Source of the DNA: an uncultured Gammaproteobacteria bacterium
GTDB lineage: Bacteria; Pseudomonadota; Gammaproteobacteria; CAYSGV01
NCBI GenBank assembly: GCA_964430685.1
Contig: CAYSGV010000001.1
Span: 1-62,245 of the forward strand
Reading direction: 5' to 3'
Length of the DNA: 62,245 nucleotides
Shown here: positions 1-52,343 of the stretch, piece by piece
Layout: every line of letters starts with the position of its first letter
Numbering within the stretch: the first letter of the stretch is position 1
Made by a program: the position numbers and the translations under genes
The notes under the pieces: model-generated
Database searches by the model: none
What the model was told of the DNA's origin: nothing
Seen by the model: the letters and a program-made list of their open reading frames with translations, nothing else

Positions 1-170
1 CCATTATTGGTGGCTTACTTCCCATCATGTTTTTTGGCGGAACAGGTTCAGAAGTCATGCGTCGTATTGCCGCACCAATGGTCGGTGGCATGATCAGCGC
101 AACGGTATTAACGCTCGTTGTGATTCCTGCGGTCTATTTTTTATGGAAACGCTTTTTATTTACGAAATAA
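1..170 (+). CDS. cusA: C-terminal end of a CusA/CzcA-family RND heavy-metal efflux pump (5' part outside window)
   Basis: Frame 3 is open from the window edge to TAA 168-170. It reads [55 protein letters not shown], matching the conserved last TM segment of CusA-type pumps (GSEVM.RIAAPM.GGM). Absent from the supplied ORF track. Confidence 0.7.
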
Positions 171-349
171 TAATAATGGCACCTTATGTTAATCTATATT
201 ATTAACTCTGCAAAAAGTACAAAAAAGCACTAGGATATATTATGATGTCTCGAGAAGAACAATACCACTAAATAAATGTTCCATCTTGGCAAATGATTTT
301 ATGGGTAAACGTGGTTCAAGATTCCGTTTAATACAAGAGGAAATCAAAT

Positions 350-757
350 ATGACCAATGACCAAAACGTACGATTTACCTGGAGAGATAATTGGCTTGTA
401 AAGAACATTCTAGCAGAAGTACCCATTATTGGTGGCTTTTTTAAAACTAATAGCCTTGCTCATGCGCTTCATCATGCCGGTATGTCAACATCAATGATTC
501 TTGGCGCTTCTACCACTATGATGTTTATGAGTCTTACTAATATGCAGGAATCCGATAGCACAAGCACAAAATTTACCAAAATGGCTATAGACATGTCTAC
601 GGGTATGATGGCCGGAGCTGTAGTTTATAACGTATTATTCGCTGCGGGAAAAAAAATATATTCTTCATGGGAAGAAATGGAACAAGCTAATAAATCTAGT
701 AAATTATTAGAAACCACCGAGCTAAGGGAAGAGGGTATGACTAGTAAATTAAGATAG
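350..757 (+). CDS. hypothetical small protein, Met/Ser/Thr-rich with hydrophobic segments
   Basis: 135-aa ORF. AGAGGA lies 7 nt upstream of the ATG. No recognisable motif. Confidence 0.45.
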   Translation: MTNDQNVRFTWRDNWLVKNILAEVPIIGGFFKTNSLAHALHHAGMSTSMILGASTTMMFMSLTNMQESDSTSTKFTKMAIDMSTGMMAGAVVYNVLFAAGKKIYSSWEEMEQANKSSKLLETTELREEGMTSKLR

Positions 758-1118
758 TTTTCTATGCTTCTACCAATATCTTGGCTGAATAATAATAATA
801 AGTGATTAATTTAAGGTCCCGTCAGCTGCACCCGATACCGAATGCAGCTTACCAGATACATATTGAAAGAAATTATAGATCGCATGATACAGACCATAAT
901 GTACTGCGATATCTAACGCCACCAATAGAAAAATGGCTAATAACAATTTTCTTAATAAATAGTTAGTGCATCACGATTCACATTCATATAGCCTTGTATA
1001 CACGGTTAATTCCGATAAATTTGACCATCGGTATTAGAAAAAGCTATTATTTTATCAGCTTCTTTCTAACATTACTATGCAGTTAATCTGTAGGATTCTT
1101 TTCATCAAATGGCGAGGC

Positions 1119-2450
1119 TTATACTTTAAATTTTGGCACCTTCTTTTGTGCACTACGAGCCCGTGCCCGTAATTCTACATCGATATACCGATCGGTAATT
1201 GCACTAGAGCTATGTCCAGCATCGTCTCGTACGTGTTCACGAGGTCGATGCTTAACGTCATCAGAAATACCCGTATGCCGAAGCCAATGCACCGTGGCAG
1301 AGCGTAGCATCTCAGCCTCTTCAATTTGTCCATCTGTGCGTAACCGTTCAACAGAAACCATAAAACAGTTTTGCACAATATGGCGAATGATGCGCGTGCT
1401 TTCTACTGGGCCAGTACCTTTATTTTTGGGGATTAAAGGCCGCTGATCATCTGGGGCGGGTAGAGGAGTATAACCTAAGTAAGTACGATAACGTTTGAGT
1501 GCATCCAATACAGGCTGGCTGACCGCGATCTGTCGCAATTTATTGCCTTTACCTACGGTTTTAAACCACCAATCTCCATTTGAATCTCGAAAAAAATCCG
1601 ACATTTTAGGTTGCCAGCGCGGCGTGGAAGCTAATTCTGATATACGCAAATACATGCCGTAAAGTAATTGCATGATAAATAAGGTTCGCTCAAAGTTAAC
1701 ATGATCTTTATCTGCCAACTCATGTGCAGTTTGAAGCACCGTACTCCATTGAAGATCAGATAAGCGGCGAATAGTAGGGGTCTGAGATTGTTTACGAATA
1801 AACTTGCTTTTCTGTCGGATTTGCAGCACTGGGTTAACTTCAGTCGCCTCTTCTTGTATGAGACTATTGTAAAAAGTCCCCAAAATAGCAAACAGCTGTT
1901 TAATACCTTGCTGAGATAATTCAAAATTTGATTTTTCTGGTTTTCCGCCATCTTCAAATGCTTTTTTAGATATCTTAGCGATAAAGGGGCACCATTGTGG
2001 ATTGGGAATTCGTTGGCCTGACTTTTCATGAAACCGACTAACTGTTTTTACACCAATCCAACGCTTGGGTGGTTTTTGGCAAAATTCAATGAATGCTTCA
2101 ATATCCAGCCGTTTGAGTTGTAACACTGGTTTTTTGTGAATAAACCAGCTCCATTGTATAAAACGTTCAATCTCGCGCCGATAAGAATTAAATGTGTCAA
2201 GACTGCCACGGTAACTATAAAGAAACATGAGCGCGTAATAATACTCCTTAGCAGCATAATCGGGTAAATGAATATCACTCTCGAATAAACATTGTCTTAG
2301 CCATGGTAGGATTACATTACTGTGGTTTTCGTTTTGACAATTTTTATATAACTCGCATACATGTTCTAAGGTATCAAAAAAGGGGTACGGACGAAGATTA
2401 TTTGTCACAGTCTTCTTCCATAATTGCGCCAATTTCTTTTGCAAATTCAC
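1119..2450 (-). CDS. tyrosine site-specific recombinase / integrase
   Basis: C-terminal catalytic signature ATVHWLRHTGISDD...HVRDDAGHSSSAITDRYI (R..H-x-x-R..H..Y pattern of phage-integrase family). The start is uncertain: ATG 2450 overlaps the upstream gene by 53 nt, and an in-frame GTG at 2408 is an alternative. Confidence 0.85.
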   Translation of the reverse strand: MNLQKKLAQLWKKTVTNNLRPYPFFDTLEHVCELYKNCQNENHSNVILPWLRQCLFESDIHLPDYAAKEYYYALMFLYSYRGSLDTFNSYRREIERFIQWSWFIHKKPVLQLKRLDIEAFIEFCQKPPKRWIGVKTVSRFHEKSGQRIPNPQWCPFIAKISKKAFEDGGKPEKSNFELSQQGIKQLFAILGTFYNSLIQEEATEVNPVLQIRQKSKFIRKQSQTPTIRRLSDLQWSTVLQTAHELADKDHVNFERTLFIMQLLYGMYLRISELASTPRWQPKMSDFFRDSNGDWWFKTVGKGNKLRQIAVSQPVLDALKRYRTYLGYTPLPAPDDQRPLIPKNKGTGPVESTRIIRHIVQNCFMVSVERLRTDGQIEEAEMLRSATVHWLRHTGISDDVKHRPREHVRDDAGHSSSAITDRYIDVELRARARSAQKKVPKFKV

Positions 2451-3513
2451 TCAATTCCGTTTCGATTTCATCCGTTGTAGGCAGAATAGATTCAAATCGT
2501 TCAGGTAATGATTTTGACAACTCATATTCAGAAATTCCCATCGGGCTATCAACTCGCCTTAACGCATATTCTGCTATAACACGGTCTTTCTTTTCACACA
2601 ATAATAACCCAATGGTCTGGCTATCCTCTGGCATTCTTAATTGGTCATCTACAGCAGACAAATAAAAATTTAATTGGCCAGTATCTCTCGGATGAAAATC
2701 ACCCCGTTTTAACTCAATGACCACATACGCATGAAGTTTCGTGTTATACATAAGCAAGTCGATTTCAAATCGCTTGCCTGAGACTTGAATTGGATATTTT
2801 GTTCCAAACAATGCAAATCCTTGCCCTAGTTCCATTAGAAATTGCCTTACATGCCTGACTAGGCCGTTATGCACATCCTTTTCATGGGCATCTTCACCTA
2901 TAGTAAGGAAGTGAAATTTATAGGGATCTTTAATCATTTCCTGGGCTAATTGAGAAGTAGGTAATGGAAGTCTATCATTAAAAGTAGTGGTCTTTAGGTT
3001 TACGTTAGATTGTCGGTTATAAAGATCGGCCTTTATTTGAGCCTGAAGGTCACGGTATGGCCATCCATGCTCAATGGTTTTTTCAGCATACCATTTTTTC
3101 ATATGGATTTTTTCAGATCCAAGCATTTGTGCTAAAACAATATGATGCGTCCAGGTCAATTGGTCAGGCAGTGCCTGACTAAATTCACCGTTCGGATAAT
3201 GCCTGGCAAAAAGGCGCATATTTTTAAGGTTGGTTATTGAAAATCCTTCCGTGTTAGGAAAGCTACGGCGCAAGTCATTAGCAAGTACATCAAATAGCTT
3301 ATCTCCCCAATGAGCCTTATCCTGGCGTTCTACAATGAGTTTCCCGACCTCCCAATAGAATTGAATCAATTCGTGGTTGACGGCAATGGCCGCACGTAAT
3401 TGGGCCTTTCTTAAGCGTGTTTTAATTTCATTAAGTAAGTTTTGATATTGGGTATCCGACTGCAATTGCCGTACGGCGTTACCTTTAACAATAGAATTTC
3501 CTTCTTTTGCCAT
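2398..3513 (-). CDS. DUF1016 / YhcG-family PD-(D/E)xK nuclease
   Basis: N-terminal LRAAIAVNHELIQFYWEVGKLI and C-terminal core EIDLLMYNTKLHAYVVIELKRGDFHPRDTGQLNFYLSAVDD match the YhcG/DUF1016 pattern (D...ELK nuclease core). AAGGA SD upstream of the ATG. Confidence 0.85.
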   Translation of the reverse strand: MAKEGNSIVKGNAVRQLQSDTQYQNLLNEIKTRLRKAQLRAAIAVNHELIQFYWEVGKLIVERQDKAHWGDKLFDVLANDLRRSFPNTEGFSITNLKNMRLFARHYPNGEFSQALPDQLTWTHHIVLAQMLGSEKIHMKKWYAEKTIEHGWPYRDLQAQIKADLYNRQSNVNLKTTTFNDRLPLPTSQLAQEMIKDPYKFHFLTIGEDAHEKDVHNGLVRHVRQFLMELGQGFALFGTKYPIQVSGKRFEIDLLMYNTKLHAYVVIELKRGDFHPRDTGQLNFYLSAVDDQLRMPEDSQTIGLLLCEKKDRVIAEYALRRVDSPMGISEYELSKSLPERFESILPTTDEIETELSEFAKEIGAIMEEDCDK

Positions 3514-3541
3514 TTTTAATCCTTATCTAACACCCCACCCC

Positions 3542-3575
3542 CATATTTCCTGTAATCACATTTACAGGAAATATG
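3542..3575. promoter_or_regulatory. perfect 14-bp inverted repeat (CATATTTCCTGTAA / TTACAGGAAATATG, 6-nt loop) between the SIR2-like and DUF1016 genes
   Basis: Read directly. Arms are 3542-3555 and 3562-3575. No T/U run follows on either strand, so it looks more like an operator than an intrinsic terminator. The 9-mer ATTTCCTGT recurs at 4747-4755, over the SIR2-like gene SD region. Confidence 0.5.
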
Positions 3576-3728
3576 AGGAGTATATTCTCATAAGAGGATA
3601 TTTATGGCAACGCTTTCTTGCGCCAGTCTGGTTTTCCTTTGGAACAGACGGCTACTGACGATGATGCTATATTGCTGAATAGGGGTGTATTTCGATGATG
3701 GCAATAGGTATCATTCAATATATTAGAT

Positions 3729-4742
3729 TTAGAGAACGAGCCTATGTGCATTATAAAAACTGATAAATCGAATTACCCATGGTTGTATATTTGTACTATT
3801 ATTTGCCATATAAAATGCATGTGTGAACTTATCCCAATATACCGGGAAAGACAGAATTCGGTTTATGTGTATTCTGCTAGCAAGAATATCCTCAATAAAG
3901 TTCGGATTAGGGTCTATGATTATCACATGAGCCTGTTTTCTATTTAAGAATTCTCGAGTAATTTCGAAAGTAAATTCATCATACACACTATAATCGTTTT
4001 TCCTGAAAAATGAGTACCCAACAAAAACTATATAAAAATAATCGTTTTCTTTGAGTAAGCTAATAAACTTTATATATGATTCATTTTTTGCCAAAATATG
4101 CTCGTTTTCAGCAGTAGCTATACAAAGCTCTCGATGAAAATCGAGTTTAGTATTATGGAATAACATATTTGATAAATATTTATTCAGTACATTTTTTAAT
4201 ACTTTTTTTATTGGAGGGTCAATAATGCCATGTAAAGAAATAACATCTATTTTTTTAATAAAATGGTTCGCCAAACCATCATGGTTCATATTGGCAATTA
4301 GTGAACTCGGATTAGCATAATTAAAAATCTGATACTCCGGACAATTATTTGGATATTGATCTAATGAGTACTCTAACGCACAAACTGCCTCTACAATCCA
4401 AGGGTTAGCATGGATAATTTCGTCCCGGACATCAATATTAGTGTCGTTAATTAAAAATTTACCGCCAAATGTTTCATGAATAATTATATCGCTAATCCCA
4501 GTTATTTTAAATCTGGCTTTCTCTTCATTTGTAAGCGTGGTATTTTTTGATTGATCAATTGTGTAGATCCCACTTGCGGAAATAGTTGTGCTTATAAGTT
4601 GTTTGGCTTTATCTACTAAATTGTAATTTGGCAATATGTACCCTGCTGACGCCCCTGCTCCTAAAAAATATAATGATTTTTGTCGAAAACAATCACGTAA
4701 GTTTTCCAGCAAACTCAATTCAGGAACATTTGGATTACACAC
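3729..4742 (-). CDS. short stand-alone SIR2-like (SIR2_2-type) protein
   Basis: Ordered motifs YFLGAGAS (GAGxS), NMNHD (TTNYD-like), ISLHG (catalytic His context) and IVFVGYSF (GYS), as in SIR2_2-family proteins. GTG start preceded by CAGGAAA. Motif-level call only. Confidence 0.55.
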   Translation of the reverse strand: MCNPNVPELSLLENLRDCFRQKSLYFLGAGASAGYILPNYNLVDKAKQLISTTISASGIYTIDQSKNTTLTNEEKARFKITGISDIIIHETFGGKFLINDTNIDVRDEIIHANPWIVEAVCALEYSLDQYPNNCPEYQIFNYANPSSLIANMNHDGLANHFIKKIDVISLHGIIDPPIKKVLKNVLNKYLSNMLFHNTKLDFHRELCIATAENEHILAKNESYIKFISLLKENDYFYIVFVGYSFFRKNDYSVYDEFTFEITREFLNRKQAHVIIIDPNPNFIEDILASRIHINRILSFPVYWDKFTHAFYMANNSTNIQPWVIRFISFYNAHRLVL

Positions 4743-5001
4743 TGTAATTTCCTGTTGATGTATATTTACATCGTAATTTGTAAATAATGCTCACTATAAC
4801 TATAGCAAACCTTAATAAATTCTTCCTTAGACAATTTCAAGACTATCGCGGCAATATTTGGTTTTACAGTTAGAAAATGTATTGAACTTTTTCTTTTTCT
4901 TAGCATCTAAATACATAAAGGGAAGTTTCCAGCTATCAATGGAATACATGAATTTTTTGCATGATTTTATGGAGAATGAATAGAAAAATTACGAGGGTTT
5001 T

Positions 5002-5742
5002 GTGGGAATAATTTTTATAGTTTTATTATTCTTTTTTTTCAAAGAAAGAACCATTAAAAATTTTATTTTGGTAGGTATAATATTTGGAATATCGTCATTA
5101 ATTTCAAATATTATACCTATGGGGCTAAATACCTTGGAAGACATGGGAATAATTGGCTTAGTGGGCTGCATTTATGGTTGGCTTATATACTTTCTTACAA
5201 CTGGGTATCATCAAGCAGTAAAACTAAATGCAAGGCCTATTATTAAGTATGCATATGTCTTAGCGATTCTCCCTACCTATCTAGTTGTGATGTATGGTTC
5301 AATAAATATTATCATCCCTTCACTCGTCGCGATACTTACAGGCTATATCCTATATAAATATACTAATGGTATAATTCAATGGTATATTCCTGCTATAGCT
5401 GTTCAAGTTGGGCAAGCTGCATGGTTTGGCATTGCATTACTGCTCCTTGCGCCAAATCAAGCTTTGTTATTTGAGTTTATTATTTTTAGCATTGGCATTT
5501 TCTTTTTATCATGGAAACCAGGCCTACCCATAGTAGCGATGTTATGCACTTATCAAGCTTTAGCATTTATTGTAAATTTCATAAATTTTATTTCGCAGCC
5601 CATTTTTACTGAGGAAAGTAGCGCTTTTTCAGTGCATTTATGTCTACGGATATTGGCTATAGTATTTATGCTTATTGGATTTAAACAAGCATCCATAGTT
5701 AAGAATTCAAAATATCTGCAAGTATCAAGTAATAAAAAATGA
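5002..5742 (+). CDS. hypothetical polytopic membrane protein
   Basis: 246-aa ORF (GTG start) with about 7 hydrophobic segments. No recognisable family motif. Confidence 0.45.
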   Translation: MGIIFIVLLFFFFKERTIKNFILVGIIFGISSLISNIIPMGLNTLEDMGIIGLVGCIYGWLIYFLTTGYHQAVKLNARPIIKYAYVLAILPTYLVVMYGSINIIIPSLVAILTGYILYKYTNGIIQWYIPAIAVQVGQAAWFGIALLLLAPNQALLFEFIIFSIGIFFLSWKPGLPIVAMLCTYQALAFIVNFINFISQPIFTEESSAFSVHLCLRILAIVFMLIGFKQASIVKNSKYLQVSSNKK

Positions 5743-5909
5743 CAACAACTCACCTTTAATATAAATTTGCCCCACTCTGCTAACACTGGTAAATTCTATT
5801 ACCGGAATTAAAAATTTGGCTGTGATTTCAATATATTTTTACATATTTAAGTATTAAGAGACTTGTAATAATTAGATCTTTTTTAGCCGATATTGGAAAG
5901 ATATTTTAA

Positions 5910-7700
5910 TTAACTACTGCCCTTCGGAGCAGACGGTTTTGGTATAGATGTTTGGGCTGCAGCTTCTGCTTCAGTGCTCGCAGGTTTCAAAGCAGTTGCT
6001 GTTAAGGTTGCTGCTTGCTTTGTAACTCCTGCAGAGAAAGCTGCCTTGTTTGAATGGCGTGCTGTTTGAGGCGGCGAAACAGACCTAAGTGATGGTGCTG
6101 TTGGTTTTGCTGACGTTGGTGGTTGTTGTTGCGTAGTCGGTACTTGGGGTGCTAACAATGCGGAAGATGCTCTTTCAGTGGGTACCGGCGCAGATAAACG
6201 TGTGGTCATAGGTGATTCATGGTGCTCAGTATCTAACTTAGCAGCCGATTTGCTCGCTGGAGCAATAGGTGAGATAAGTGAAATTGATGGCATTTGTACC
6301 TGCTCACTAGGTTTAGGAGCTTGTGATACTAATTGCGGTGGTTTAAATTGCGAAAGTTTTTTGAAAACGGTATCTGAGTCTTTACTTTCGCCTGTTATAG
6401 GAGAGGTTGAACTTGGTGATACTAATTGAGCTTCTTTTCGTTCTTTCTTTTCTTTCTTTTTATGTTTCTTTTTCTCTTTTTTCTTTTCTTCAGGACTTAT
6501 TGGCTTAAGTTCTTCTGGCCTCTTTTGTTCTGGCAGAGTAGATATTGCTATTTCAGGTGGCGTTGACGTTTTAGCAATAGTTTCTTTATGTTTGGATACA
6601 GCAATTTGTTTAGGTGTTTCGTGTACTTTATTTTCAATAGTCTCTTTAGCTCCAGCATGTTTCAAGGCATTGTATACTTGCCAACGACCAAGTTTAGCCG
6701 CCAGATGCAAAGGGGTATCGCCATAAATTCGATCAGGCATATTAAGAATAGCTTGTCGATCATTTACATTTGGATAATTTCGCTCCAATTGTTCCAGCAT
6801 GTCGTATATCAGATATTCTTGATCGCTATCTTTTAACTGATGGAATGGATTTTGGCCTTTAGGATCAGCTGTAATAGGATGTGGTAACCGATAATAAGAT
6901 GCAAATGGATCCCAACCAGGAATATGTGATGAATGAGGTACGTAATGCGCTTCACGCCATGATGCTTGACTACGATAACCAATACTGATGTAAGGTGATC
7001 CTTGAATCGAATCGTTCCTACTAAGGTGAAAACGTCCATCAAACGCTGGCAGTTCGGCCGGCTGAATCCCTTCAGTCCTTAATCTATTCTGGATCATTAG
7101 CAAAGCTATTCGCATTTGCAAAACCCGTTGATTTCTTTGTGTAGCATCCTGCCAATTTGTTCGGTCACAATACACGGTAATTTTCTTTCGACGTTGTTCT
7201 CGTTGGATAATCTCTGCTTCTTGGCGATATTCTGCTTCTTTTTCTTCCAATTTCTTCCGTTCGGCTTCTTGGTGGGGCGTGAGTAGTTTTGATGGTTCAG
7301 ATGGCAATAGCCTTGTTTCTGCTAATCGCTTTGCCTCTTTCTCCCCTGCTTCTGTGTCCTTTCTTTCTAAAAGCCCCATATTTAATACCTTGACTAAGCC
7401 AATACCTTCTCTGGCACAAACGTCAACCACAATTGCCCAGGCTCTTTCTAAATTACCGTGATTGGCATCATCTAAAATATTAATATGGAATTTAAATGGA
7501 TATGTCTCATCTGTTTCTTCTGATGCTGCACCATCAAATGCACAAATTATAAACGGTGGTTTAATACGAAATTCTGCTGTATGACCATGTATTTTGTGCT
7601 GAGGCGTACCTTTGGTTTCAGGGCTTAAATTACCATCGCATTGTGCTCTGAAATAAATTGCACTGAATTCTTTGGGTTTTTCTGCCTTTTGCTCAGCCAT
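5910..7700 (-). CDS. effector-like protein with an ankyrin repeat, a Lys/Glu-rich tract and a Pro/Ser/Thr/Ala-rich C-terminus
   Basis: ANK signature GDTPLHLAAKLGRWQVYNALKHAGA. I prefer ATG 7700 (MAEQKAEK) to the track start at 7868, because 7868 would overlap the well-supported divergent gene starting at 7842. Confidence 0.65.
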   Translation of the reverse strand: MAEQKAEKPKEFSAIYFRAQCDGNLSPETKGTPQHKIHGHTAEFRIKPPFIICAFDGAASEETDETYPFKFHINILDDANHGNLERAWAIVVDVCAREGIGLVKVLNMGLLERKDTEAGEKEAKRLAETRLLPSEPSKLLTPHQEAERKKLEEKEAEYRQEAEIIQREQRRKKITVYCDRTNWQDATQRNQRVLQMRIALLMIQNRLRTEGIQPAELPAFDGRFHLSRNDSIQGSPYISIGYRSQASWREAHYVPHSSHIPGWDPFASYYRLPHPITADPKGQNPFHQLKDSDQEYLIYDMLEQLERNYPNVNDRQAILNMPDRIYGDTPLHLAAKLGRWQVYNALKHAGAKETIENKVHETPKQIAVSKHKETIAKTSTPPEIAISTLPEQKRPEELKPISPEEKKKEKKKHKKKEKKERKEAQLVSPSSTSPITGESKDSDTVFKKLSQFKPPQLVSQAPKPSEQVQMPSISLISPIAPASKSAAKLDTEHHESPMTTRLSAPVPTERASSALLAPQVPTTQQQPPTSAKPTAPSLRSVSPPQTARHSNKAAFSAGVTKQAATLTATALKPASTEAEAAAQTSIPKPSAPKGSS

Positions 7701-7841
7701 GAATGATTTCTCTTTAAATATGTTAACTATATCAACATTATAGTTGGTTTTGCTGTGCTTTTTCTCAAAATCCATGTAAAATTGGAATACAGCAACCTCA
7801 GCTTTGGTTATAATTACATTAAATGAATGAGGAGATGAGCT

Positions 7842-8843
7842 ATGCCATCCTATCAACAGATTAAACATGCTTTACGCCACCCCAAAGAATTCAGGCAACT
7901 GTTTCTAGATATCGATAGTTTTCGTTCAGCAATGGAATATACCGATTTAAGGGTTAAATTATTTAGGCATTTAGCTAGCCATCCCAAAAGCATACATAAA
8001 TTAGTTAATAACTATTTTGATTTCAAAAAATTAATCCAAATGGATAGGGATTATCTTCAAACACCAGAATGTAACAACGTTACAGCACAGGGATTGCTTT
8101 TTCAAATGCTAGCTAAAGATAGTGAGCTATTAAACAAAGTAGTCAAAGACCATACAAGCTTGGGCTCTATTGCTTATCTTATTAAATCTGCGCCGATTTC
8201 CGAAGAAAAAAAAGTGGAACTGCAAGTTCAAGTTGTTGAAACTTTAATGGCGATAGAAAATAAATTATTAGATATATATCATCCTAAAATTGGTGAAAAA
8301 ACAAGAGATTGTTACAGTAATTTAATTAGTCATGATTGCCATGAATGGCCACCAGCATTTATCACTCATTTATCTAAAATGGAAGTAGAACAACTTTTTC
8401 CAATCATTTTTGAAGAATTTAAAGCGAATAATTTCAGTAATTACGATAATTTTATTGGTACATTGGAAGATATGCGCATACGCTGGAAAACCTTTGATAA
8501 GGCCACTTACGAATTCTGTGTAAATCAGGTAATGGCTATTTTGAATTTACCAACAATGACAACTCCGCTTTATCGATGTTACTTAGTCGGTATTTTAGAA
8601 GATTGTGAGAAAAGCCGTCCTAAAGGGATGGACTCTTTGCTTCCCGCTGAATTACAGCACAAAATAAAAACAGATCCAGGTTTTGAACTTTATCGTAATA
8701 CTGACGCCTCTCTACTTACTACTTCACAACAAAAAAGCGGATTATTAAAATCTGTAGCTTCTCCCGAATCCAGCAGTGCCTCTATTTGTCGCGAACCCTC
8801 ACCAAAACCAACAGGGTTACCGGTTACTGTTAAATCCAATTAA
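7842..8843 (+). CDS. hypothetical protein (effector-like ORFan)
   Basis: 333-aa ORF with a strong SD (GAGGAG) 7 nt upstream of the ATG. No recognisable motif. Confidence 0.55.
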   Translation: MPSYQQIKHALRHPKEFRQLFLDIDSFRSAMEYTDLRVKLFRHLASHPKSIHKLVNNYFDFKKLIQMDRDYLQTPECNNVTAQGLLFQMLAKDSELLNKVVKDHTSLGSIAYLIKSAPISEEKKVELQVQVVETLMAIENKLLDIYHPKIGEKTRDCYSNLISHDCHEWPPAFITHLSKMEVEQLFPIIFEEFKANNFSNYDNFIGTLEDMRIRWKTFDKATYEFCVNQVMAILNLPTMTTPLYRCYLVGILEDCEKSRPKGMDSLLPAELQHKIKTDPGFELYRNTDASLLTTSQQKSGLLKSVASPESSSASICREPSPKPTGLPVTVKSN

Positions 8844-9128
8844 TAAACCGCATCTATTATATTTATCGAGTAGTGTTAGTCATCAACACTTTCTCACTCT
8901 TCTGCATTAGAGTTTTTTCGAAGCAAAACTATCATCTTTTAAGACCAAATGTATTTTCTCTTGCTTATATTTGACTCTATTCTATTAAGCTAGTGCACTA
9001 GGTCCACTGAACAAACCACTATAAGTACTTCATTTTCAACAGTAATTATCAGAACACAATCTATACTTATATTGAGGATTTTGAACAAAACAATGCAAAC
9101 ATTAACAAAATATTAAGTGGATAACGAT

Positions 9129-13692: not shown

Positions 13693-15327
13693 TTATACCT
13701 TAGGTGGTGATGGTGGGTTATAAAGCAACGGAGCCTGCCCTTGTCCTAATCCTGCTCGAGGAGCAATCGTATCCCCTCCCCTCGGGATTGGTATAAATGG
13801 TGTTTTATAGCCCGTTCCAACAACATCCTTTGTTTGTGTAGCATGTGGTACAACGGCTATGGTAGGAGTTACTACGGCCGCTTTTTCGTCTGCGGCTTTT
13901 GCTTCTCTTAATTTAGCCATAATGTATTTAAATGTTGCAGTGTGCTCTGGTGTTTTTGCTTCTTTTGCAGCCTGCAGATCTGATTTTTCTATATTTTCTT
14001 CGATTCCCATCTTGAATTCTTCAATCAGGCATTTTACTGCTGCTTCGTGTCCTGCGCGTACAGCCAAACCAAGTGCACTGATGTTATCTAAGCGAGCAGT
14101 CATATTAAGTTTGGGAAACAACTCCTTACAAAGTCTTAGTACAGTCAGATCCCCTCTTGCAAGAGCCTCAAACATCACACGTACACCAATGATTTCATCT
14201 CTAGCCCTAGCTGGATATTTTTCGAGTAGCCATTTTACAAACTGAATGTGGTTACTACGTAATGCAATATAGACGCTACCGAAATTTAAATCATCGATAT
14301 CTTGGTTAAATTCTTTAATTAAACAATCAATAGCTTCTTTATTGCCAAACATGACTGCACCTTCCATTGGCCCCATGTTATTTCCATTACGTTTATTTGG
14401 ATTAATTTGTGGAAATTTTTTGCAATAGCGTAACAACTCTGGTTTGTTCTCACTGGCTGCAACAAATACTAGATTTTGTCCAGAAGCATCACAAGTGGTT
14501 GGGTCAATACCTTTTTCTTCGATTAACCATCTTACCAATTCTATCTTTCCAGCTCGTGCAGCAGACAAAACAGGCGTATCTCCACCAGGACCATAAGAAG
14601 CTCGATGTATATCGGCCCCTTGACGCATGTATGTTTCAATTAAATCTTTTCTTCCCGCATGTGCAGCATCGAAAAGCTCTTTTGCAAATGGTAATATTTT
14701 CTTTGAAGCTGGTACTTTCAAAGCAGGATTTGTAATTCTGCTACGTAAATAGTTAAGCGTTCGCTCACTACCCATGTTTGCCGCATTATCTAAAGTTTCT
14801 TGAGTTACCACTTTATTAAGGTCAACACCATGTGCCTCAATCCATTGTACTGCATCGAGTGTATCCTCTAGCGGAATAACATAATTTATAATATGCCTTT
14901 TACCTTTTGTTTCTTCAAACAAATCGGGTTGCTTTTTCTTCATTTCATTAAAAAATTCTAATAAATGGATATGATTATATGTCGCCGCTAGTAAGAAAAG
15001 ATCGTAAGCTAATTCGTCACTTATTTTATCTTTACTTTTTATTAAATTCGGATCTGTAGCGAGCAACTTCTGAACTAATGGTAAATTCCCAACTATCACA
15101 GCATCTACAATTTGCTGACTTGGCGTTTTTGCATTCGCTGCAGATTGCTTGGCTGGTGGCGGAGGTAATGGTTTGGAAACAGAGGCAGCGGGTTTAGATG
15201 CTGCAGATGGCGGTACAGCAGAGGCGCCTCCTCTATTACCATTAGCAGCATTTGAGCGGCTCTCAAGTGGCGCCGATGGCATTGCTACGGGATTAACAGG
15301 ACCAGCGACAGGGGTTCTTTTATTCAT
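13693..15327 (-). CDS. multi-ankyrin-repeat protein with Pro/Ala-rich N-terminus
   Basis: Several ANK units, e.g. GDTPVLSAARAGKIELVRWLIEEKGIDP, SGQNLVFVAASENKPELLRY, ISALGLAVRAGHEAAVKCLIEE. GGAGG SD 7 nt upstream of the ATG. Confidence 0.8.
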   Translation of the reverse strand: MNKRTPVAGPVNPVAMPSAPLESRSNAANGNRGGASAVPPSAASKPAASVSKPLPPPPAKQSAANAKTPSQQIVDAVIVGNLPLVQKLLATDPNLIKSKDKISDELAYDLFLLAATYNHIHLLEFFNEMKKKQPDLFEETKGKRHIINYVIPLEDTLDAVQWIEAHGVDLNKVVTQETLDNAANMGSERTLNYLRSRITNPALKVPASKKILPFAKELFDAAHAGRKDLIETYMRQGADIHRASYGPGGDTPVLSAARAGKIELVRWLIEEKGIDPTTCDASGQNLVFVAASENKPELLRYCKKFPQINPNKRNGNNMGPMEGAVMFGNKEAIDCLIKEFNQDIDDLNFGSVYIALRSNHIQFVKWLLEKYPARARDEIIGVRVMFEALARGDLTVLRLCKELFPKLNMTARLDNISALGLAVRAGHEAAVKCLIEEFKMGIEENIEKSDLQAAKEAKTPEHTATFKYIMAKLREAKAADEKAAVVTPTIAVVPHATQTKDVVGTGYKTPFIPIPRGGDTIAPRAGLGQGQAPLLYNPPSPPKV

Positions 15328-18880: not shown

Positions 18881-21772
18881 TTAAATTTTCCAGTGTTGGT
18901 CTTTCTTTTGCAGCATCATTTGCAAGAACGCATCACTACGATGGGCTAAATGGCGCAATATATTTACTTTTTCTTCTATGTTGAACTGCCCTTTCTGTAT
19001 ACGTTCGTTTAATTGTTTTACTGTTTGTCTGGGATACATTGCGGCTGAACCTTTTCTTATGTCCCAAAATTCATGTTGGAAATCTTTGTGCTGAGAAATC
19101 TCTTTTGCTTTATCCATTAATAACTGCCCGAGTTGCTGCGCTTCATTGCTATATTGTTTGGCTTTTATGGGATTATTTAGCCGCTGCTGATTTCGAAGCC
19201 CTATCAATTTATGATATTTACATTCATCCCGAATATATGCTTTTAATAGCTCTGACAAAGAATGTTTCGGTTCGTTGCGAATCTTAATACCTAAGCTTAC
19301 AAATTGTTTCGATAAGTTTTCCTGCCATGTTTGCAATCGCTTAGTAATATGAGTTTTGATATGTCCAACAACATTTTCAGTTAACAAATCACGACGAGTC
19401 ATAAATGCGAGAGGATAATCAAGCACACTATCTTTAAGCGCATATCGCGCTAAACTTCGCGCGAGATTTGACCGGTCGCGATATTCTGTTTGCGCAGCAT
19501 AAAGTTGGCAACTTTCCCGATGCCGGCTGAGGGCAACATAGGTTAAATGTCTATTCCAACACTGTCCACCTAGATAGACCAAGGTATGGTCCTTGGTCAT
19601 TCCTTGCGCTTTATGTATGGTTCCTGCATACCCATAGGTAAACTGACTATACTCCTTAGGGCTAAACCGCATGCTTTGCTGACTATCAAGCAAAACGGTA
19701 ATATCCACTACCCTACCCTGCTTATTTACATGTATGTCGGCAACCGTACCAAAACTACCGTTTCGAATTTTTAAGTTTCGGTCGTTTTTAAGAAAAAGAA
19801 TTCTATCTCCAACGCTGAGCTGTATTTCTCCTTGAATCGTGCGTATGGAATGACCATGCGATAAGTCGCCATGTTGTATACGCTCCCCGCGAATTCGTTC
19901 ATTGAGTAATGATACATCACGATTACGATGCGCCAGCATTAATATTTCATTTAAGGGGTTTCTTTGCCGTAATATGTACCAATGGCGAATCATTTGTTGT
20001 ATGGCTGCGGTTTCATCCTCTTTGAAATGTAAATGCCCTGCCTCATCATAAGCTCGCAATCCTTGCGCTATTTTCCCCTCTGAAAAGGCAAGTGTGGCTT
20101 CGCGTTGCCAGTCAACCTTTTGTCTATAGATGGTTTGTAAGTCAGTGAACCCTACACGCTCCACTATGGCACGGAATGATGCACCGGGACCAATAGGCTG
20201 CAACTGCTGCACATCACCAACTAATACTAACTTCGCACGTGCCTTCACAACGTTTTTAAGTAATGCGTGCATCCCATGACTATCTGTCATTCCGGCTTCA
20301 TCCATTACGACAACATCACCTTGTCGTAAATACACACTTCCCTTCTCAAGCCCTAAACGAAAAGCATCAATGGTTCTTGATTGAATACCTGCACCTTGCT
20401 GCAAATTATCAGCAGCCACCCCGGATAAGGCGACTCCAAATACCCGAACACCATGTGACTGCCATATTATATTTGCTGCACCCAGTAATAAGCTTTTGCC
20501 AGTACCGGCACGCCCCACGACACAACAAATAGCCCTATTGCGTATAAGGCGATTAACCGCAATGCGTTGCTCAAGAGTCAGATTTTTAGCCTCTTTTTGC
20601 TCATACTCTATTAGAAGTTTTTCTCGTCGTTTTACCGAAATAGAGAGATGTCCTCGTTTTCGCAATTGCTCTGCCAAGAGTTGAATTTTGTTTTCTAAAC
20701 GAAATAAGCGCCTGGTCGTGAACTGCTCATGTCCCTCTGGACTCAACCCTAAATAAACAAGCTCTGAGGACGCTTTTAATTGCATAAGAGCTTGTGCAAA
20801 ATGCTCTGCCTTGTCAGTATAGGGTAATAATGCTTTTGCGAGGCTGCGCTGCGTAAATACAGCATCATAGTATTCGATACCTTTAAGTACTTTCTCGATA
20901 TTCTCTTTTGACAGATAATTTGTGTTGGCCGGTTCTGGTAAAAACACATACCGTTGTAACTCATGAATGATTTGTTTGGTATCAAAACAGTCTTGTCCAA
21001 ACCCAAGCTTATTAAGTAAGCGCTCTGGTTTTTCTCGAATGCGTTCATTGTTATGCCGGTAAGTTTCTTGTATTGCATCCCATCGTTCCAATGACTTTCC
21101 AAGCTTGCGCATTTCACCTATTGCACGACCGCGATGCTGTGTTGGAATTAAATCAATGCCCTGAGCTTCATACGAACGATGGTCAATCCGCGCTGGGTGT
21201 TGATGCAACTGCAAATGAAAATTTGCGTAAGCGGCCCACTGTTGACGCCATTCTTGTAACAAGGTTTTTTGGTTCCACTCGGTCACCTTCCGGCCAAAGC
21301 CTAGGGTTGTTATTTCACGCATGGTGAGTAGGACATGAACATGCGGATTACCATTATCCCAGTGAACCGAATAATCTGCGACCATGCCATGTTGTACAAA
21401 TTGATCTTGAATAAATTCTTTTGCCAAACTGATATTCTGTTCACGGGTAAGTTCTATTGGTAACGCAAATTCAATTTCACGGGCAAGCTGTGCATCGATT
21501 CGCGTCTCTTTTGCTTCAACCAGGTTCCATAACCTCTCTGCTGCTAACCGTGCATCATCTTGCTCTAATGTCGTTATAGGTCGCAGCCAGGAGGCAGCAT
21601 TCGCCGGAATAAGTATCTCACGATGCACCACATTCGATTTGCTGGTGTAGTCCCACCATCGCCCTTCCCTCTCATCAAACAAGCGCATGGCACGACGATA
21701 GGCTGCGGCGGCAACAATACTTTGTCCTTTGCCCCGAGAAATTGTTTTTGCATGTAGGTGGTAGATAGCCAT
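18881..21772 (-). CDS. traA: Ti-type conjugative relaxase TraA (MobA/MobL relaxase fused to RecD-like helicase)
   Basis: N-terminus MAIYHLHAKTISRGKGQSIVAAAAYR and HWDNGNPHVHVLLT (MobA/MobL motifs I and III). Central Walker A VVGRAGTGKS and DEAGM, with a UvrD_C-like C-terminal GYAGTIHKAQG. Confidence 0.9.
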   Translation of the reverse strand: MAIYHLHAKTISRGKGQSIVAAAAYRRAMRLFDEREGRWWDYTSKSNVVHREILIPANAASWLRPITTLEQDDARLAAERLWNLVEAKETRIDAQLAREIEFALPIELTREQNISLAKEFIQDQFVQHGMVADYSVHWDNGNPHVHVLLTMREITTLGFGRKVTEWNQKTLLQEWRQQWAAYANFHLQLHQHPARIDHRSYEAQGIDLIPTQHRGRAIGEMRKLGKSLERWDAIQETYRHNNERIREKPERLLNKLGFGQDCFDTKQIIHELQRYVFLPEPANTNYLSKENIEKVLKGIEYYDAVFTQRSLAKALLPYTDKAEHFAQALMQLKASSELVYLGLSPEGHEQFTTRRLFRLENKIQLLAEQLRKRGHLSISVKRREKLLIEYEQKEAKNLTLEQRIAVNRLIRNRAICCVVGRAGTGKSLLLGAANIIWQSHGVRVFGVALSGVAADNLQQGAGIQSRTIDAFRLGLEKGSVYLRQGDVVVMDEAGMTDSHGMHALLKNVVKARAKLVLVGDVQQLQPIGPGASFRAIVERVGFTDLQTIYRQKVDWQREATLAFSEGKIAQGLRAYDEAGHLHFKEDETAAIQQMIRHWYILRQRNPLNEILMLAHRNRDVSLLNERIRGERIQHGDLSHGHSIRTIQGEIQLSVGDRILFLKNDRNLKIRNGSFGTVADIHVNKQGRVVDITVLLDSQQSMRFSPKEYSQFTYGYAGTIHKAQGMTKDHTLVYLGGQCWNRHLTYVALSRHRESCQLYAAQTEYRDRSNLARSLARYALKDSVLDYPLAFMTRRDLLTENVVGHIKTHITKRLQTWQENLSKQFVSLGIKIRNEPKHSLSELLKAYIRDECKYHKLIGLRNQQRLNNPIKAKQYSNEAQQLGQLLMDKAKEISQHKDFQHEFWDIRKGSAAMYPRQTVKQLNERIQKGQFNIEEKVNILRHLAHRSDAFLQMMLQKKDQHWKI

Positions 21773-22689: not shown

Positions 22690-24147
22690 CTATGGTTTAT
22701 TTTCGATTTGACCAGATAATAACTTCAATCCTAATTCCGTAATTTTATATCTTTGTTTACTACTTTTAGGTTTTTCAGGAATAGTCATTCCTAATAAGTC
22801 ATTTTCTATAAGTGGGGTAATATATTTTTGTCTAAATTTTGTCCTATTTTTCCAGCGTATCACTTTCATTAGTTCAGTGACTGTCTTGGGATTTCGACAT
22901 AAATCTATTATTGCGCTCATTTCCAGATCTAATTCGAACTTGGTCCCAACTTGGTCCCGACTTAGTCCCGACTTAGTCCCAGATGGTGCTACTGTTGCAA
23001 CTTCCGGATGTGGATAAAATGTCACTCGCAACACATTTCCTAATTCTTCCCATTGAGGTTCTGGATACCCACCACGATGGCAAGCTTCTTTTATTCGTTT
23101 GTAACCACTGCCCCATTCTTCTACTAAACCTAGTTCACCGAAAACTCGAGCAATAGTAGGGTTACGAATACGGCTGACTCCTGCTTTAAATTGCTCGATA
23201 CTCATTCCCGGTGGCATCACTCCTGGATTTTGAATTTCAAGCTTGTCATCGTATATTGCAACAAAAATACGAGTTCCAGGAATTTCATAGTTTGCATGGA
23301 CAAGAGCATTGGTCAGCGCTTCTCGAATTCCATCTATTGGGTACTCTGAAATATCTGTTCGCTTCATCGCACCAAACTTACCAGACATTTTAGTATTACG
23401 TCGTATAAATTTAGGAACTTCCTCTATAGCACGAAGAATACCGTCTTCAATATTTAATCGATCGATAAATTCAGCTCTTGTTGTCCCCACAAACCGAGCA
23501 CATCGTACTTCAGCAAACGGGAAATACTCATGTCGAATTTCTGGTTTACCAAATAAAATTACTCCACCATTGCTGGCAACATCACGTTTTCCTCTTTTAG
23601 TCAGAATACCTAAATTAAGCAATTTAACGGTATCAATGGAAAAGTTTCTTTTTGAAAAAACGGTTTCAATAAGCTGCATATCTAGATCAAATTCCACCAC
23701 ATTATCACATGCGGTTTTATCAAAAAAAGGATGATGATGTGCACGTTTTATTTCATCAATTAATTCTTTACTAGCAAGCCTGGTCGAATTTCCTAACCTA
23801 GTGTAAACACCATTTTCCTCTCCCTTATCAGATAAATAATAAGGAACTGCCACATGATCTACCTGTATAACTAAAACTGATTTTCTTTTAGCCTCAAAAA
23901 TGTGAAAATCAGGTAATATTTGTGGTTTTATTCTATGTGCAATTGCATTGGCCAATTGTTCCTGTACACGCGCAGGTTCCTTAAGGCCAACAATATCGCC
24001 ATTGTCATCAACTCCAATTAGAATGATGCCACCAGCAGTATTAGCAAATGCAACAACGCATTTCAAAATCGGTTCTAAAGAAGAAGTATCCCGCTTGAAT
24101 TCTAATGTTTTACTTTCTGGTAATTTAGCAAGTCGAATAATATCCAT
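22690..24147 (-). CDS. AlbA_2 (Schlafen-like, 'divergent AAA') + HATPase_c_4 + C-terminal wHTH protein
   Basis: N-terminus SKTLEFKRDTSS...VVAFANTAGGIILIGVDDNGDIVG (AlbA_2). IREALTNALVHANY...FVAIYDDKLEIQNPG...RNPTIARVF..LGLVEEWGSGYKRI (HATPase_c_4). Confidence 0.85.
   Translation of the reverse strand: MDIIRLAKLPESKTLEFKRDTSSLEPILKCVVAFANTAGGIILIGVDDNGDIVGLKEPARVQEQLANAIAHRIKPQILPDFHIFEAKRKSVLVIQVDHVAVPYYLSDKGEENGVYTRLGNSTRLASKELIDEIKRAHHHPFFDKTACDNVVEFDLDMQLIETVFSKRNFSIDTVKLLNLGILTKRGKRDVASNGGVILFGKPEIRHEYFPFAEVRCARFVGTTRAEFIDRLNIEDGILRAIEEVPKFIRRNTKMSGKFGAMKRTDISEYPIDGIREALTNALVHANYEIPGTRIFVAIYDDKLEIQNPGVMPPGMSIEQFKAGVSRIRNPTIARVFGELGLVEEWGSGYKRIKEACHRGGYPEPQWEELGNVLRVTFYPHPEVATVAPSGTKSGLSRDQVGTKFELDLEMSAIIDLCRNPKTVTELMKVIRWKNRTKFRQKYITPLIENDLLGMTIPEKPKSSKQRYKITELGLKLLSGQIENKP
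22937..22980. repeat. 4 x 11-bp tandem repeat inside the AlbA_2 gene
   Basis: + strand units are AACTTGGTCCC, AACTTGGTCCC, GACTTAGTCCC, GACTTAGTCCC. On the coding strand these are GGGACTAAGTC x2 and GGGACCAAGTT x2. Unit length is not a multiple of 3; the array encodes SGTKSGLSRDQVGTKF. Confidence 0.9.
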
Positions 24148-32873: not shown

Positions 32874-34274
32874 ATGACCTTAGATGAGCTTAAATTAATC
32901 ATTGCGCAAAATGAATCAAAAATACTTGAATTTAAAGAATCAACGGCGAAATTAAAATCTGCTTGTGAAACGCTTTGTGCTTTTTTAAATAATCACGGTG
33001 GTGTTATTTTAATCGGTGTAAAAAATAACGGCCAAATAATAGGCCAACATGTTACAGACAATACAAGACAAGAGATTGCTAATGAAATTAGCAAAATAGA
33101 ACCAACAGCATCTGTTGAGGTTGATTATGTATCCATTGATGGCAATAAATTTGTTATAGTCATAAAAGCTGTTACTGGGCAACATGCGCCCTATGTTTAC
33201 GATGGTCGGCCTTTTCATCGGACTGAATCGACAACAAGTAAAATGTCTCAACATCGTTATGAGCAATTATTAGTTGAACGTGGACAACTAAAACATTCTT
33301 GGGAAGAATGGATAGCCTCTGGATATACGATTGATGATCTTGATCATAATGAAATTCGCCTTGCAGTTAAACAAGGTATTTCAGTGGGACGTGTTCCTGC
33401 TGTGGTAGCGGATGAATCTCTTGAAAATATTTTACAAGGTTGGGCGCTGCTTACAGAGGGCAAAATTAATAATGCTGCCGCAATCTTATTTGCTAAGAAG
33501 GTGCTGCCCCGTTATACACAATGTCATATAAAACTTGGTCGATATAGGGGTACAAATAGGCTAGGGGATTTTATTGATAACAAAGAATTCTTTGGCAATG
33601 CATTTCGTATGTTTGAAGAAGCAAATAGTTTTATAACACGGCATCTTCCAATCGCTAGTTTTTTTGAACCTGAACGTTTTGAACGTCTTGACCGACCCGC
33701 ATTACCTGTATTGGCAGTACGTGAAGCATTAGTCAATGCAATTTGTCATCGTGATTATTCTAACCGTGCTACGGCCATAACAGTGGCAATATTTGATGAT
33801 CGGATGGAAATTTGGAACAATGGAAAATTGCCACCATCCCTAAAAATTGATAATTTAAAGAAAAAGCATAAATCAGAGCCGCGTAATAAAGTTATTGCTA
33901 AAGTATTTTATGATCGCAAATACTTCGACGGTTGGGGTACAGGAATCAATAAGATATATGATCTCTGTCATGAAGAGGGAGTACCAGAACCGGTTTATGA
34001 AGAGTATTCTGGAGGGGTTGAAATCATATTTAAGTTTCGAGAGCTGATAGCTATTACTAGTTTACCACTCAAACAACCATTAAGCATAAGACAAGAAGAA
34101 ATATTGAAAATTATCAAAAAATTAGGCGGGGTAAGTCCTAAACTGTTGATAGACAAATTAGACAATCCACCGTCAGAACGAATGATTCGTAATGATTTAA
34201 ATTACCTTAAAAAATGTGGTTTAATTGATATCAAAGGTTCAGCACGAAGTACCTTATGGGTGCTAAAGAAATAA
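32874..34274 (+). CDS. AlbA_2 (Schlafen-like) + HATPase_c_4 + wHTH protein, paralogue of 22690-24147
   Basis: ESKILEFKESTAKLKSACETLCAFLNNHGGVILIGVKNNGQIIG. VREALVNAICHRDY...VAIFDDRMEIWNNG...RNKVIAKVF...GWGTGINKI. Confidence 0.85.
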   Translation: MTLDELKLIIAQNESKILEFKESTAKLKSACETLCAFLNNHGGVILIGVKNNGQIIGQHVTDNTRQEIANEISKIEPTASVEVDYVSIDGNKFVIVIKAVTGQHAPYVYDGRPFHRTESTTSKMSQHRYEQLLVERGQLKHSWEEWIASGYTIDDLDHNEIRLAVKQGISVGRVPAVVADESLENILQGWALLTEGKINNAAAILFAKKVLPRYTQCHIKLGRYRGTNRLGDFIDNKEFFGNAFRMFEEANSFITRHLPIASFFEPERFERLDRPALPVLAVREALVNAICHRDYSNRATAITVAIFDDRMEIWNNGKLPPSLKIDNLKKKHKSEPRNKVIAKVFYDRKYFDGWGTGINKIYDLCHEEGVPEPVYEEYSGGVEIIFKFRELIAITSLPLKQPLSIRQEEILKIIKKLGGVSPKLLIDKLDNPPSERMIRNDLNYLKKCGLIDIKGSARSTLWVLKK

Positions 34275-41826: not shown

Positions 41827-42165
41827 ATGATAGGCACACCAGTACAATATTTTGAAGCATTAAACCGACCGATGTTATTACTCGGCGTCGACAGACAGTT
41901 ATTATTAATTCTTGTCGGTCTAACGGTGCCAATTGCATTTTCGGCAAGTTTCAATTGGTTGATGGATATTATTGCTGGGTGTTTATTACTTGTTGGTTAT
42001 GCATTCGGATTAATCCTAAGCCGCATTGATAAACAACTGATTGAACTATATCGGCGGCATATACGTTTTCATCATTATTACCATGCTTTGCCTGGCGCCC
42101 TGGCTTCAATACCCATACTTCGCGTCAGTGTACCTATTTACCAAGGTAAGAGGGGATTGGTTTAA
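41827..42165 (+). CDS. trbD: TrbD (VirB3-like)
   Basis: 112 aa with ...LNRPMLLLGVDRQL... and two TM segments. Stop overlaps the trbE start. Confidence 0.75.
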   Translation: MIGTPVQYFEALNRPMLLLGVDRQLLLILVGLTVPIAFSASFNWLMDIIAGCLLLVGYAFGLILSRIDKQLIELYRRHIRFHHYYHALPGALASIPILRVSVPIYQGKRGLV

Positions 42166-52303: not shown

Positions 52304-52343
52304 AGGATTAATGCAATTACATTCTAACAAAAGGAGTTTAACG

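Follow-up and report, generated by a model that had tools for sequence, protein, structure and literature searches.

A divergent SIR2-like protein encoded as a lone gene on gammaproteobacterial mobile elements, beside an unrelated DUF1016 nuclease-recombinase unit

We analyzed a 62,245-nucleotide stretch of DNA from an uncultured gammaproteobacterium (assembly GCA_964430685.1, contig CAYSGV010000001.1, positions 1 to 62,245), which we refer to as the window. Near its start lies a gene for a SIR2-like protein of 337 amino acids (aa), and the initial annotation had proposed that this gene and the neighboring gene for a DUF1016 nuclease form a two-gene defense module. We found instead that the SIR2-like protein belongs to a rare, unannotated family of stand-alone proteins, and that the two genes are neighbors by accident of insertion and do not form a two-gene system. 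The reading that we favor, with fair but not strong confidence, is that two unrelated units of cargo adjoin each other on a conjugative element and that the first of these units is a single-gene, AbiH-like candidate NADase.

The three co-oriented open reading frames (ORFs) that had been described at this site are all present on the minus strand: the SIR2-like gene (3729 to 4742), the nuclease gene (2398 to 3513), and an integrase gene (1119 to 2450). The SIR2-like gene starts with GTG. Inspection of its 5' region (4743 to 4800, minus strand) revealed a Shine-Dalgarno-like (SD-like) element, AGGAAA, 7 nucleotides (nt) before the GTG, as well as the 9-mer ACAGGAAAT, which is discussed below. The gene is 31.8% G+C (GC), versus 36.8% for the window as a whole, 39.4% for the nuclease gene, and 41.0% for the integrase gene. 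It is separated from the nuclease gene by 215 base pairs (bp).

The motifs that define the SIR2 superfamily (GAGxS, N-x-D, HG, and G-x-S) occur in this order in the 337-aa protein, as GAGAS (residues 28 to 32), NMNHD (151 to 155), SLHG (169 to 172), and VGYSF (241 to 245). The initial annotation had reported these motifs, and they are conserved across a family of 24 close members: there is no variation at N153, H154, D155, H171, G172, or G242-F246, and conservation at G28, A29, G30, and S32 is 90% or higher. The distance from N-x-D to HG is 18 residues in this family, which is close to that in an archaeal Sir2 (chain 1m2n). G28/G30/S32, N153, D155, H171, and G242-Y-S244 are predicted to be the NAD-binding and catalytic residues. 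The same motifs recur in a set of 85 distant relatives, and the close and distant sets form one superfamily with full-length homology (hhalign probability 100%, E = 2.4e-46).

A structural model, which the initial annotation had suggested as a check, also points to SIR2. The AlphaFold 2 (AF2) model that was built from the 24-sequence alignment has a mean predicted local distance difference test (pLDDT) score of 85.4 and a predicted template modeling (pTM) score of 0.86. It supersedes a first model from 5 sequences, which had a moderate pLDDT of 65 and matched the same fold families. When the 24-sequence model was compared to the PDB with Foldseek, all of the top 50 matches were SIR2 or sirtuin folds (50/50, probability 0.91 to 1.00). 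These included KomBC (Kongming), Hst2, SIR2-HerA/Nezha, SIRT2, DSR2, ThsA, and SIRT1/3. In BFVD, the sole credible match was a phage sirtuin-type protein. The model does not contain a second domain: besides the SIR2 core, it has a helical insertion at about residues 40 to 135 and C-terminal helices.

Several results weigh against this identification. Searches of Pfam, PADLOC, and NCBIfam with the 337-aa protein gave zero matches at E ≤ 0.1, so the profile match to SIR2_2 or PADLOC that had been proposed as a check was not found, and the gathering cutoff of Pfam SIR2_2 (PF13289) was not reached. Just 1 of the 24 close members matched SIR2_2, below threshold (E = 0.0036), and none of the close members matched PADLOC's SIR2 models. 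The structural likeness is also distant: TM scores range from 0.36 to 0.51, the best E value is about 6e-4, and identities are 9 to 16%.

The distant relatives provide some connection to known SIR2 models. Three of them matched PADLOC's SIR2 models (best E = 4.3e-7), and others matched the Aga_SIR2 models, which describe SIR2 proteins associated with prokaryotic Argonaute (pAgo). None of the 85 matched SIR2_2 at E ≤ 0.01. Searches of PDB sequences with three family profiles (A1, A2, and A3) found nothing significant; the profile of the distant set (A3) did align with archaeal Sir2 (1m2n) at GAGxS and at N-x-D...HG, in a nonsignificant match. A bridge in sequence to the SIR2 models is thus supported, and it is transitive, through the distant relatives. 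Because the predicted structure, the conserved motifs, and these transitive matches agree, we conclude that the 337-aa protein is, as modeled, a SIR2-fold protein with an intact set of catalytic motifs, and that it is very divergent, with no direct profile match.

The family is also sparse in the sequence databases. When 5.8 billion proteins were searched with a word index, 4 relatives of the 337-aa protein emerged, none of which (0/4) has a Pfam domain; among 1.84 billion cluster representatives, which were searched exhaustively with HMMER, 171 matched at E ≤ 1e-3, including 25 at E ≤ 1e-30. The homologue from Legionella quinlivanii is labeled as a "SIR2-like domain-containing protein" in UniRef and as hypothetical by NCBI. 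As for AbiH (PF14253), none of the 24 close members matched its profile, and 1 of the 85 distant members matched with E = 0.0013 and 19.4 bits, versus a cutoff of 30.9. The family lies outside the current SIR2_2, AbiH, and PADLOC models.

To examine the gene's surroundings, we used 13 loci that contain SIR2-like homologues (L001 to L013), which represent 11 distinct gene contexts. These loci are from metagenomes, Legionella quinlivanii, Legionella sp., Thiotrichales, and a gammaproteobacterial metagenome-assembled genome; the hosts of the family are mostly Legionella, Thiotrichales, and other Gammaproteobacteria. The genes beside the SIR2-like homologue differ from locus to locus: VirB3/VirB4/TrbC and PIN/MazE (L001), an IS66 transposase (L005), two integrase-like genes (L009), a TrwC relaxase (L010), a Schlafen/AlbA_2 protein and DUF2779 (L011), a Toprim/DnaB-type primase-helicase (L012), and KfrA with a 1274-aa protein of no known family (L013). 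In an all-versus-all comparison of every ORF of at least 30 aa within 2.5 kb of the SIR2-like genes, we found no conserved neighbor, and no locus contains a conserved small antitoxin-like or partner ORF.

The window itself encodes a MobA/MobL relaxase-helicase (18881 to 21772), a VirB4/TrbE ATPase (42165 to 44624), and a VirD4/TraG-type coupling protein (50108 to 51919). Because a relaxase, VirB4, and the coupling protein of a type IV secretion system (T4SS) are all present, the 62-kb contig appears to be, or to contain, a conjugative plasmid or an integrative and conjugative element (ICE). We did not find a terminal overlap of the contig's ends that would point to a circular molecule, nor a tRNA gene in the window that could be an integration target. 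Since the neighbors vary, are mostly genes of mobile elements, and the window seems to be conjugative, we consider the SIR2-like gene to be stand-alone mobile cargo. Members of the family are found as single genes on plasmids, ICEs, integrase islands, and segments flanked by insertion sequences. One caveat counts against this view: several of the homologues' contigs are short, and neighbors were judged within the available flanks of about 1 to 10 kb. Searches against plasmid and phage collections with tblastn, and of positions 1 to 9000 of the window against plasmids with megablast, gave no matches.

Three neighborhoods contain other genes of interest. First, in L001, the T4SS region with the SIR2-like homologue (P0004) also contains the PIN/MazE pair, an N6/N4 DNA methyltransferase, and a pair of DUF4411 and Peptidase_M78/helix-turn-helix (HTH) genes (1401 to 2065 and 5522 to 7190). 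This cluster looks like defense and addiction cargo inside a conjugative element. Second, in L013, which is a contig of a KfrA-type plasmid, the 1274-aa protein (2240 to 6064) has only a faint match to AAA_16, and its gene stops 28 nt short of the SIR2-like homologue. A role as a partner specific to this locus, for example as a STAND-like ATPase, is possible; the protein has no counterpart in the other SIR2-like loci. Third, in the window, a gene for a multi-pass hydrophobic protein of 246 aa (5002 to 5742, plus strand; GC 32.3%) is divergent from the SIR2-like gene. It has no match in Pfam, and searches of the loci did not find a homologue of it beside the SIR2-like relatives. An inverted repeat of 19 bp (95% identical; 5072 to 5119) lies inside the 5' end of this gene.

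The proposed pairing with the nuclease was not conserved from either side. When we used the window's nuclease and integrase as queries (tblastn, E ≤ 1e-3), neither gene was found in L001 to L013, whose flanks cover about 1 to 10 kb around the SIR2-like gene, and a set of 15 DUF1016 loci with nucleases of 30 to 82% identity (L014 to L028) contained no SIR2-like gene (0/15). Judged by conservation of the neighborhood, a criterion that the initial annotation itself had set, the two-gene system is refuted.

What does accompany the nuclease is the integrase. The nuclease (371 aa) is, as had been stated, a YhcG/DUF1016 protein of the PD-(D/E)xK type: it matches both YhcG_C (5.1e-57) and DUF1016_N (1.2e-38), and it has D252, E267, and K269 at the expected catalytic positions of a D...ExK motif (in EIDLL, residues 250 to 254, and VIELK, residues 265 to 269). 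It also matches PADLOC's PDC-S02 over the full length of the model (8.6e-129). The integrase that follows it (443 aa) was correctly recognized as a tyrosine recombinase. It matches Phage_integrase (5.9e-7, 29.9 bits versus a cutoff of 27.1) and has the R...K...HxxR...H...Y signature (RISEL, GKGNK, HWLRHT, HSS, and DRYI); its matches to XerC/XerD-like models in NCBIfam are below the cutoff. The integrase gene overlaps the 3' end of the nuclease gene by 53 nt, so the two may be translationally coupled.

The closest relatives of the nuclease, in L014 (82% identity) and L015 (79%), have the same arrangement. In L015, an integrase that is 68% identical (by tblastn) lies directly downstream and overlaps the nuclease gene, and the overlap of about 50 nt is kept. 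In L014, only the start of the integrase is visible, at the end of the contig (tblastn). The unit of palindrome, DUF1016 nuclease, and tyrosine recombinase spans 1119 to 3620 in the window, 208 to 1542 in L014, and 4436 to 7383 in L015. Literature searches turned up no description of this arrangement.

In both L014 and L015, a divergent gene begins about 80 nt upstream of the nuclease, and in L015 its product is a DUF4158 protein of 160 aa (Pfam 5e-16). DUF4158 is an N-terminal domain family of Tn3-type transposases. In the window, alignment, blastn, and the list of ORFs indicate that this gene is reduced to its start (3604 to 3678, plus strand): the ATG at 3604 is followed by 24 codons, which are unrelated, and a stop. 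Homology with L014 ends at about position 3618 (blastn), and this point, which is about 110 nt away from the SIR2-like stop codon, marks the junction with the segment that carries the SIR2-like gene. Because the homology ends there, the ATG remains as a remnant, and the segment is low in GC, the SIR2-like segment occupies the place of a DUF4158 gene that was lost in the window.

Between the nuclease gene and this junction lies a perfect inverted repeat with arms of 14 bp and a spacer of 6 nt (3542 to 3575). Its core is TTCCTGTAA-N6-TTACAGGAA, and it lies 29 nt upstream of the nuclease's ATG. The initial annotation had noted this palindrome, and it is the window's only inverted repeat with arms of at least 13 bp and a spacer of at most 10 nt; no such repeat arose in 40 Markov simulations. 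However, a word within it had also been taken as a possible regulatory element shared by the SIR2-like gene and the nuclease, which the relatives do not support: both L014 and L015 have the palindrome in the same position before the nuclease, and neither locus has a SIR2-like gene. The arms are conserved across the window, L014, and L015, and the 6-nt spacers vary (ATGTGA, AACCTA, and TTCATA). Because the arms are retained while the spacer changes freely, the comparison points to a binding site for a dimeric protein rather than an RNA element. An RNA hairpin is disfavored, as L015 has breaks in the pairing without compensation, which changes the predicted hairpin energy from -26 to -10 kcal/mol.

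Two other roles for the palindrome were rejected. First, it is not the intrinsic terminator of the SIR2-like gene: it is not followed by a T-tract, it is absent from a terminator scan, and it is kept where there is no SIR2-like gene. Second, it is not the insertion junction of the SIR2-like gene, as the homology with L014 extends about 43 nt past it.

With a conserved promoter-like block on one side and the SD sequence on the other, the palindrome is probably the operator of the nuclease-integrase unit. A weakness of this interpretation is that it is based on three sequences. Alternatively, the tyrosine recombinase encoded next to it could use the palindrome as its core recombination site, with two inverted binding arms around a 6-bp crossover region. 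The core sites of tyrosine recombinases, such as dif and loxP, have a geometry of the 14-6-14 type, and the conserved arms and free spacers are as expected for such a site. This idea is also consistent with two other observations: the unit does not include a dedicated regulator gene, and the palindrome is still perfect in the window despite the loss of DUF4158. However, homology with the relatives runs straight through the palindrome, so it is not the junction of an element, and a search for a second copy or a half-site at the other end of the nuclease-integrase unit found none. The location between the promoter-like block and the SD sequence also fits an operator. We regard a recombination site as possible, but we would not bet on it.

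As to what the SIR2-like protein might do, we infer from the model and the motifs that it is a candidate NADase, that is, an enzyme that consumes nicotinamide adenine dinucleotide (NAD+). The first unit is a monocistronic gene for a small, single-domain SIR2-fold protein that travels on mobile elements. This protein could be the NAD+-consuming effector of a single-gene, AbiH-like abortive infection or exclusion function, with N153, D155, and H171 as the catalytic residues of NAD+ consumption. Sensing of the trigger, which in other systems is done by fused domains or partner proteins, would be supplied by the helical insertion (about residues 40 to 135) or by oligomerization. More speculatively, oligomerization that is induced by a ligand or a protein might keep the bare SIR2 domain silent or release it. 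KomBC forms a filamentous assembly (PMC13454610), and the helical assembly of ThsA (PDB 8bto) is among the Foldseek matches. Two considerations count against the immune-effector reading. NAD+ consumption and an anti-phage role are predictions, and the SIR2 fold also allows deacylase or ADP-ribosyltransferase chemistry. Furthermore, we see neither an obvious sensor domain nor a partner, which leaves any trigger mechanism speculative.

We considered several other readings; those that assign the protein a different function (addiction or competition, a secreted effector, or a deacylase or ADP-ribosyltransferase) each fit less well than an immune effector does. A broader proposal joins both units. 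It holds that the family is a previously unrecognized, fully autonomous, single-domain SIR2 immune protein specific to mobile elements of Legionella and Thiotrichales, that it directly senses infection or incoming DNA via the insertion or via oligomerization, and that, as a family, it differs from AbiH and constitutes a minimal SIR2 defense system. For the second unit, it holds that the palindrome, the DUF1016 nuclease, the recombinase, and DUF4158 together make up a recombination module that is coupled to a nuclease and has not been described before, in which the palindrome serves as the site of the recombinase. Taken as a whole, this combination strikes us as doubtful.

The SIR2-like protein might instead be a toxin or addiction factor that stabilizes the element, or a factor that acts on competing plasmids or on the recipient cell during conjugation. 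In favor of this view, the gene is found almost exclusively on conjugative or mobilizable elements, it adjoins the PIN/MazE toxin-antitoxin pair in L001, and the protein lacks a sensor domain. But no locus has a conserved small antitoxin-like ORF next to the gene, and an unregulated NADase toxin would be hard to maintain without an antidote. Also, the known SIR2 proteins on mobile elements that have this set of motifs are immune effectors (PMC13064643; bioRxiv 10.1101/2024.09.18.613514). We therefore think that an addiction or competition factor is unlikely.

Still less likely is that the protein is a secreted effector of the Legionella type, or a housekeeping-like sirtuin (a deacylase or ADP-ribosyltransferase), and that it acts on proteins of the host or of bacteria and does not deplete NAD+. 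The window and several of the homologues do come from Legionella-like genomes that are rich in eukaryote-like ankyrin proteins, and in the fold search, the classical sirtuins Hst2 and SIRT2 reach scores as high as those of the immune SIR2 proteins. However, the family is also found in Thiotrichales and in diverse environmental metagenomes, and its patchy distribution on mobile elements is unlike that of a core enzyme. Furthermore, classical sirtuins have a four-cysteine zinc module that this family lacks (C134 is its only nearly invariant cysteine), and the family does have the GYSF...D motif, which is typical of SIR2_2 and immune-type proteins.

That leaves the original proposal of a two-gene system, which had also rested on a shared 9-mer word. 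The 9-mer ACAGGAAAT does have a copy at 4747 to 4755 that overlaps the SD of the SIR2-like gene, but the evidence does not suggest shared regulation. It contains an SD-like AGGA, and it is absent upstream of all of the SIR2-like homologues. Outside of the palindrome, the window has 2 copies of it, versus 0.72 expected. The full 14-mer arm does not match at 4747 to 4755 even if 3 mismatches are allowed: the match stops at 9 bp. We judge this third copy of the 9-mer to be a chance match or one driven by the SD. Although the two genes are co-oriented and adjacent, the nuclease matches a defense candidate (PDC-S02), and the 9-mer stands upstream of both, a SIR2-like NADase and a DUF1016 nuclease that are co-regulated via a shared ACAGGAAAT word seem very improbable, given the lack of co-occurrence from the SIR2-like side and from the DUF1016 side, the 215-bp gap in which the start of another, lost gene remains, the disparity in GC (31.8% versus 39.4%), the retention of the palindrome with the nuclease in relatives that have no SIR2-like gene, and a 9-mer that is statistically unremarkable and missing upstream of the homologues.

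This negative result removes a spurious "new two-gene system" and assigns the nuclease to a tyrosine recombinase and a conserved palindrome instead. The link between palindrome, nuclease, and recombinase offers an opening into the DUF1016/YhcG proteins, which are poorly understood. As for the SIR2-like family, because none of the profile libraries (Pfam, NCBIfam, or PADLOC) detects it, censuses of defense genes that rely on these libraries would miss it, including in Legionella. Specialists would not find a stand-alone SIR2 on a mobile element surprising, and its function here is one that we infer; nevertheless, the family deserves to be tested experimentally. If it is an active NADase defense gene, then it would be among the smallest self-contained SIR2 immune proteins known, and it would be a tractable case for learning how a bare SIR2 domain stays silent and then fires, which is also a question for AbiH.

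The rest of the window encodes other proteins of possible interest. Two Schlafen proteins combine AlbA_2 and HATPase_c_4 domains (22690 to 24147 and 32874 to 34274), and one of them has a Fic-like C-terminal domain and a winged helix-turn-helix. In Legionella sp. (L011, 6124 to 7608), a protein of the same architecture lies immediately upstream of the SIR2-like homologue. A 1336-aa protein with no match in Pfam (52311 to 56321) is followed by one of 871 aa (57146 to 59761), in which an OTT_1508-like deaminase domain was detected (1.4e-10). Both are possible toxins or effectors that the conjugative element carries as cargo. There are two ankyrin-repeat proteins, of 652 aa (5910 to 7868, weak Ank match) and 544 aa (13693 to 15327, strong Ank match), and the C terminus of the 652-aa protein is long, of low complexity, and rich in Pro, Ser, Ala, and Lys. 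Eukaryote-like ankyrin proteins are typical of Legionella-type genomes. Finally, an exact direct repeat of 16 nt, CCATTATTGGTGGCTT, is found at 1 to 16 and at 423 to 438, in or near an ORF of 135 aa (350 to 757).

We compared both units to known systems. The nuclease is, by its match to the model, a stand-alone DUF1016/YhcG nuclease like PDC-S02, which to our knowledge is a computational candidate without experimental validation. It differs from PDC-S02 in its coupling to a tyrosine recombinase and a conserved palindrome, which are outside that definition. DUF1016 genes are enriched beside restriction-modification and BREX loci (PMC9881135).

The best structural matches to the SIR2-like protein are the effectors of multicomponent systems, namely ThsA (Thoeris), DSR1/DSR2, SIR2-HerA/Nezha, SIR2-APAZ/pAgo (SPARSA), and KomC (Kongming). 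It shares with them the arrangement of GAGxS, N-x-D, HG, and GYS, and it is carried on mobile elements, as many known defense genes are. However, ThsA, DSR2, and the APAZ systems have a fused sensor (SLOG in ThsA, the C-terminal domain in DSR2, or APAZ), and Thoeris, SIR2-HerA, pAgo, and Kongming have an obligatory partner (ThsB, HerA, pAgo, and KomA/KomB, respectively). The window's family has neither, and it does not show the combination of a SIR2 model with a partner or a fused sensor that describes the SIR2 systems in PADLOC.

By analogy, the 337-aa protein seems most like AbiH in its mode of working. AbiH is about 340 aa, so both are single proteins of about this size that consist of essentially one SIR2- or sirtuin-like domain and have no partner gene, and both are found on integrative or conjugative elements. 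The window's family has AbiH's single-gene architecture and lies outside its profile (PF14253), and the hosts also differ: AbiH is from Firmicutes, whereas this family is from Gammaproteobacteria (Legionella and Thiotrichales). AbiH of Lactococcus lactis is a single-gene, sirtuin-like system on ICEs whose trigger is unknown (PMC13064643), and it has been grouped with ThsA, DSR, Nezha, pAgo-SIR2, and PD-T7-2 in an immune clade, "SIRim" (bioRxiv 10.1101/2024.09.18.613514).

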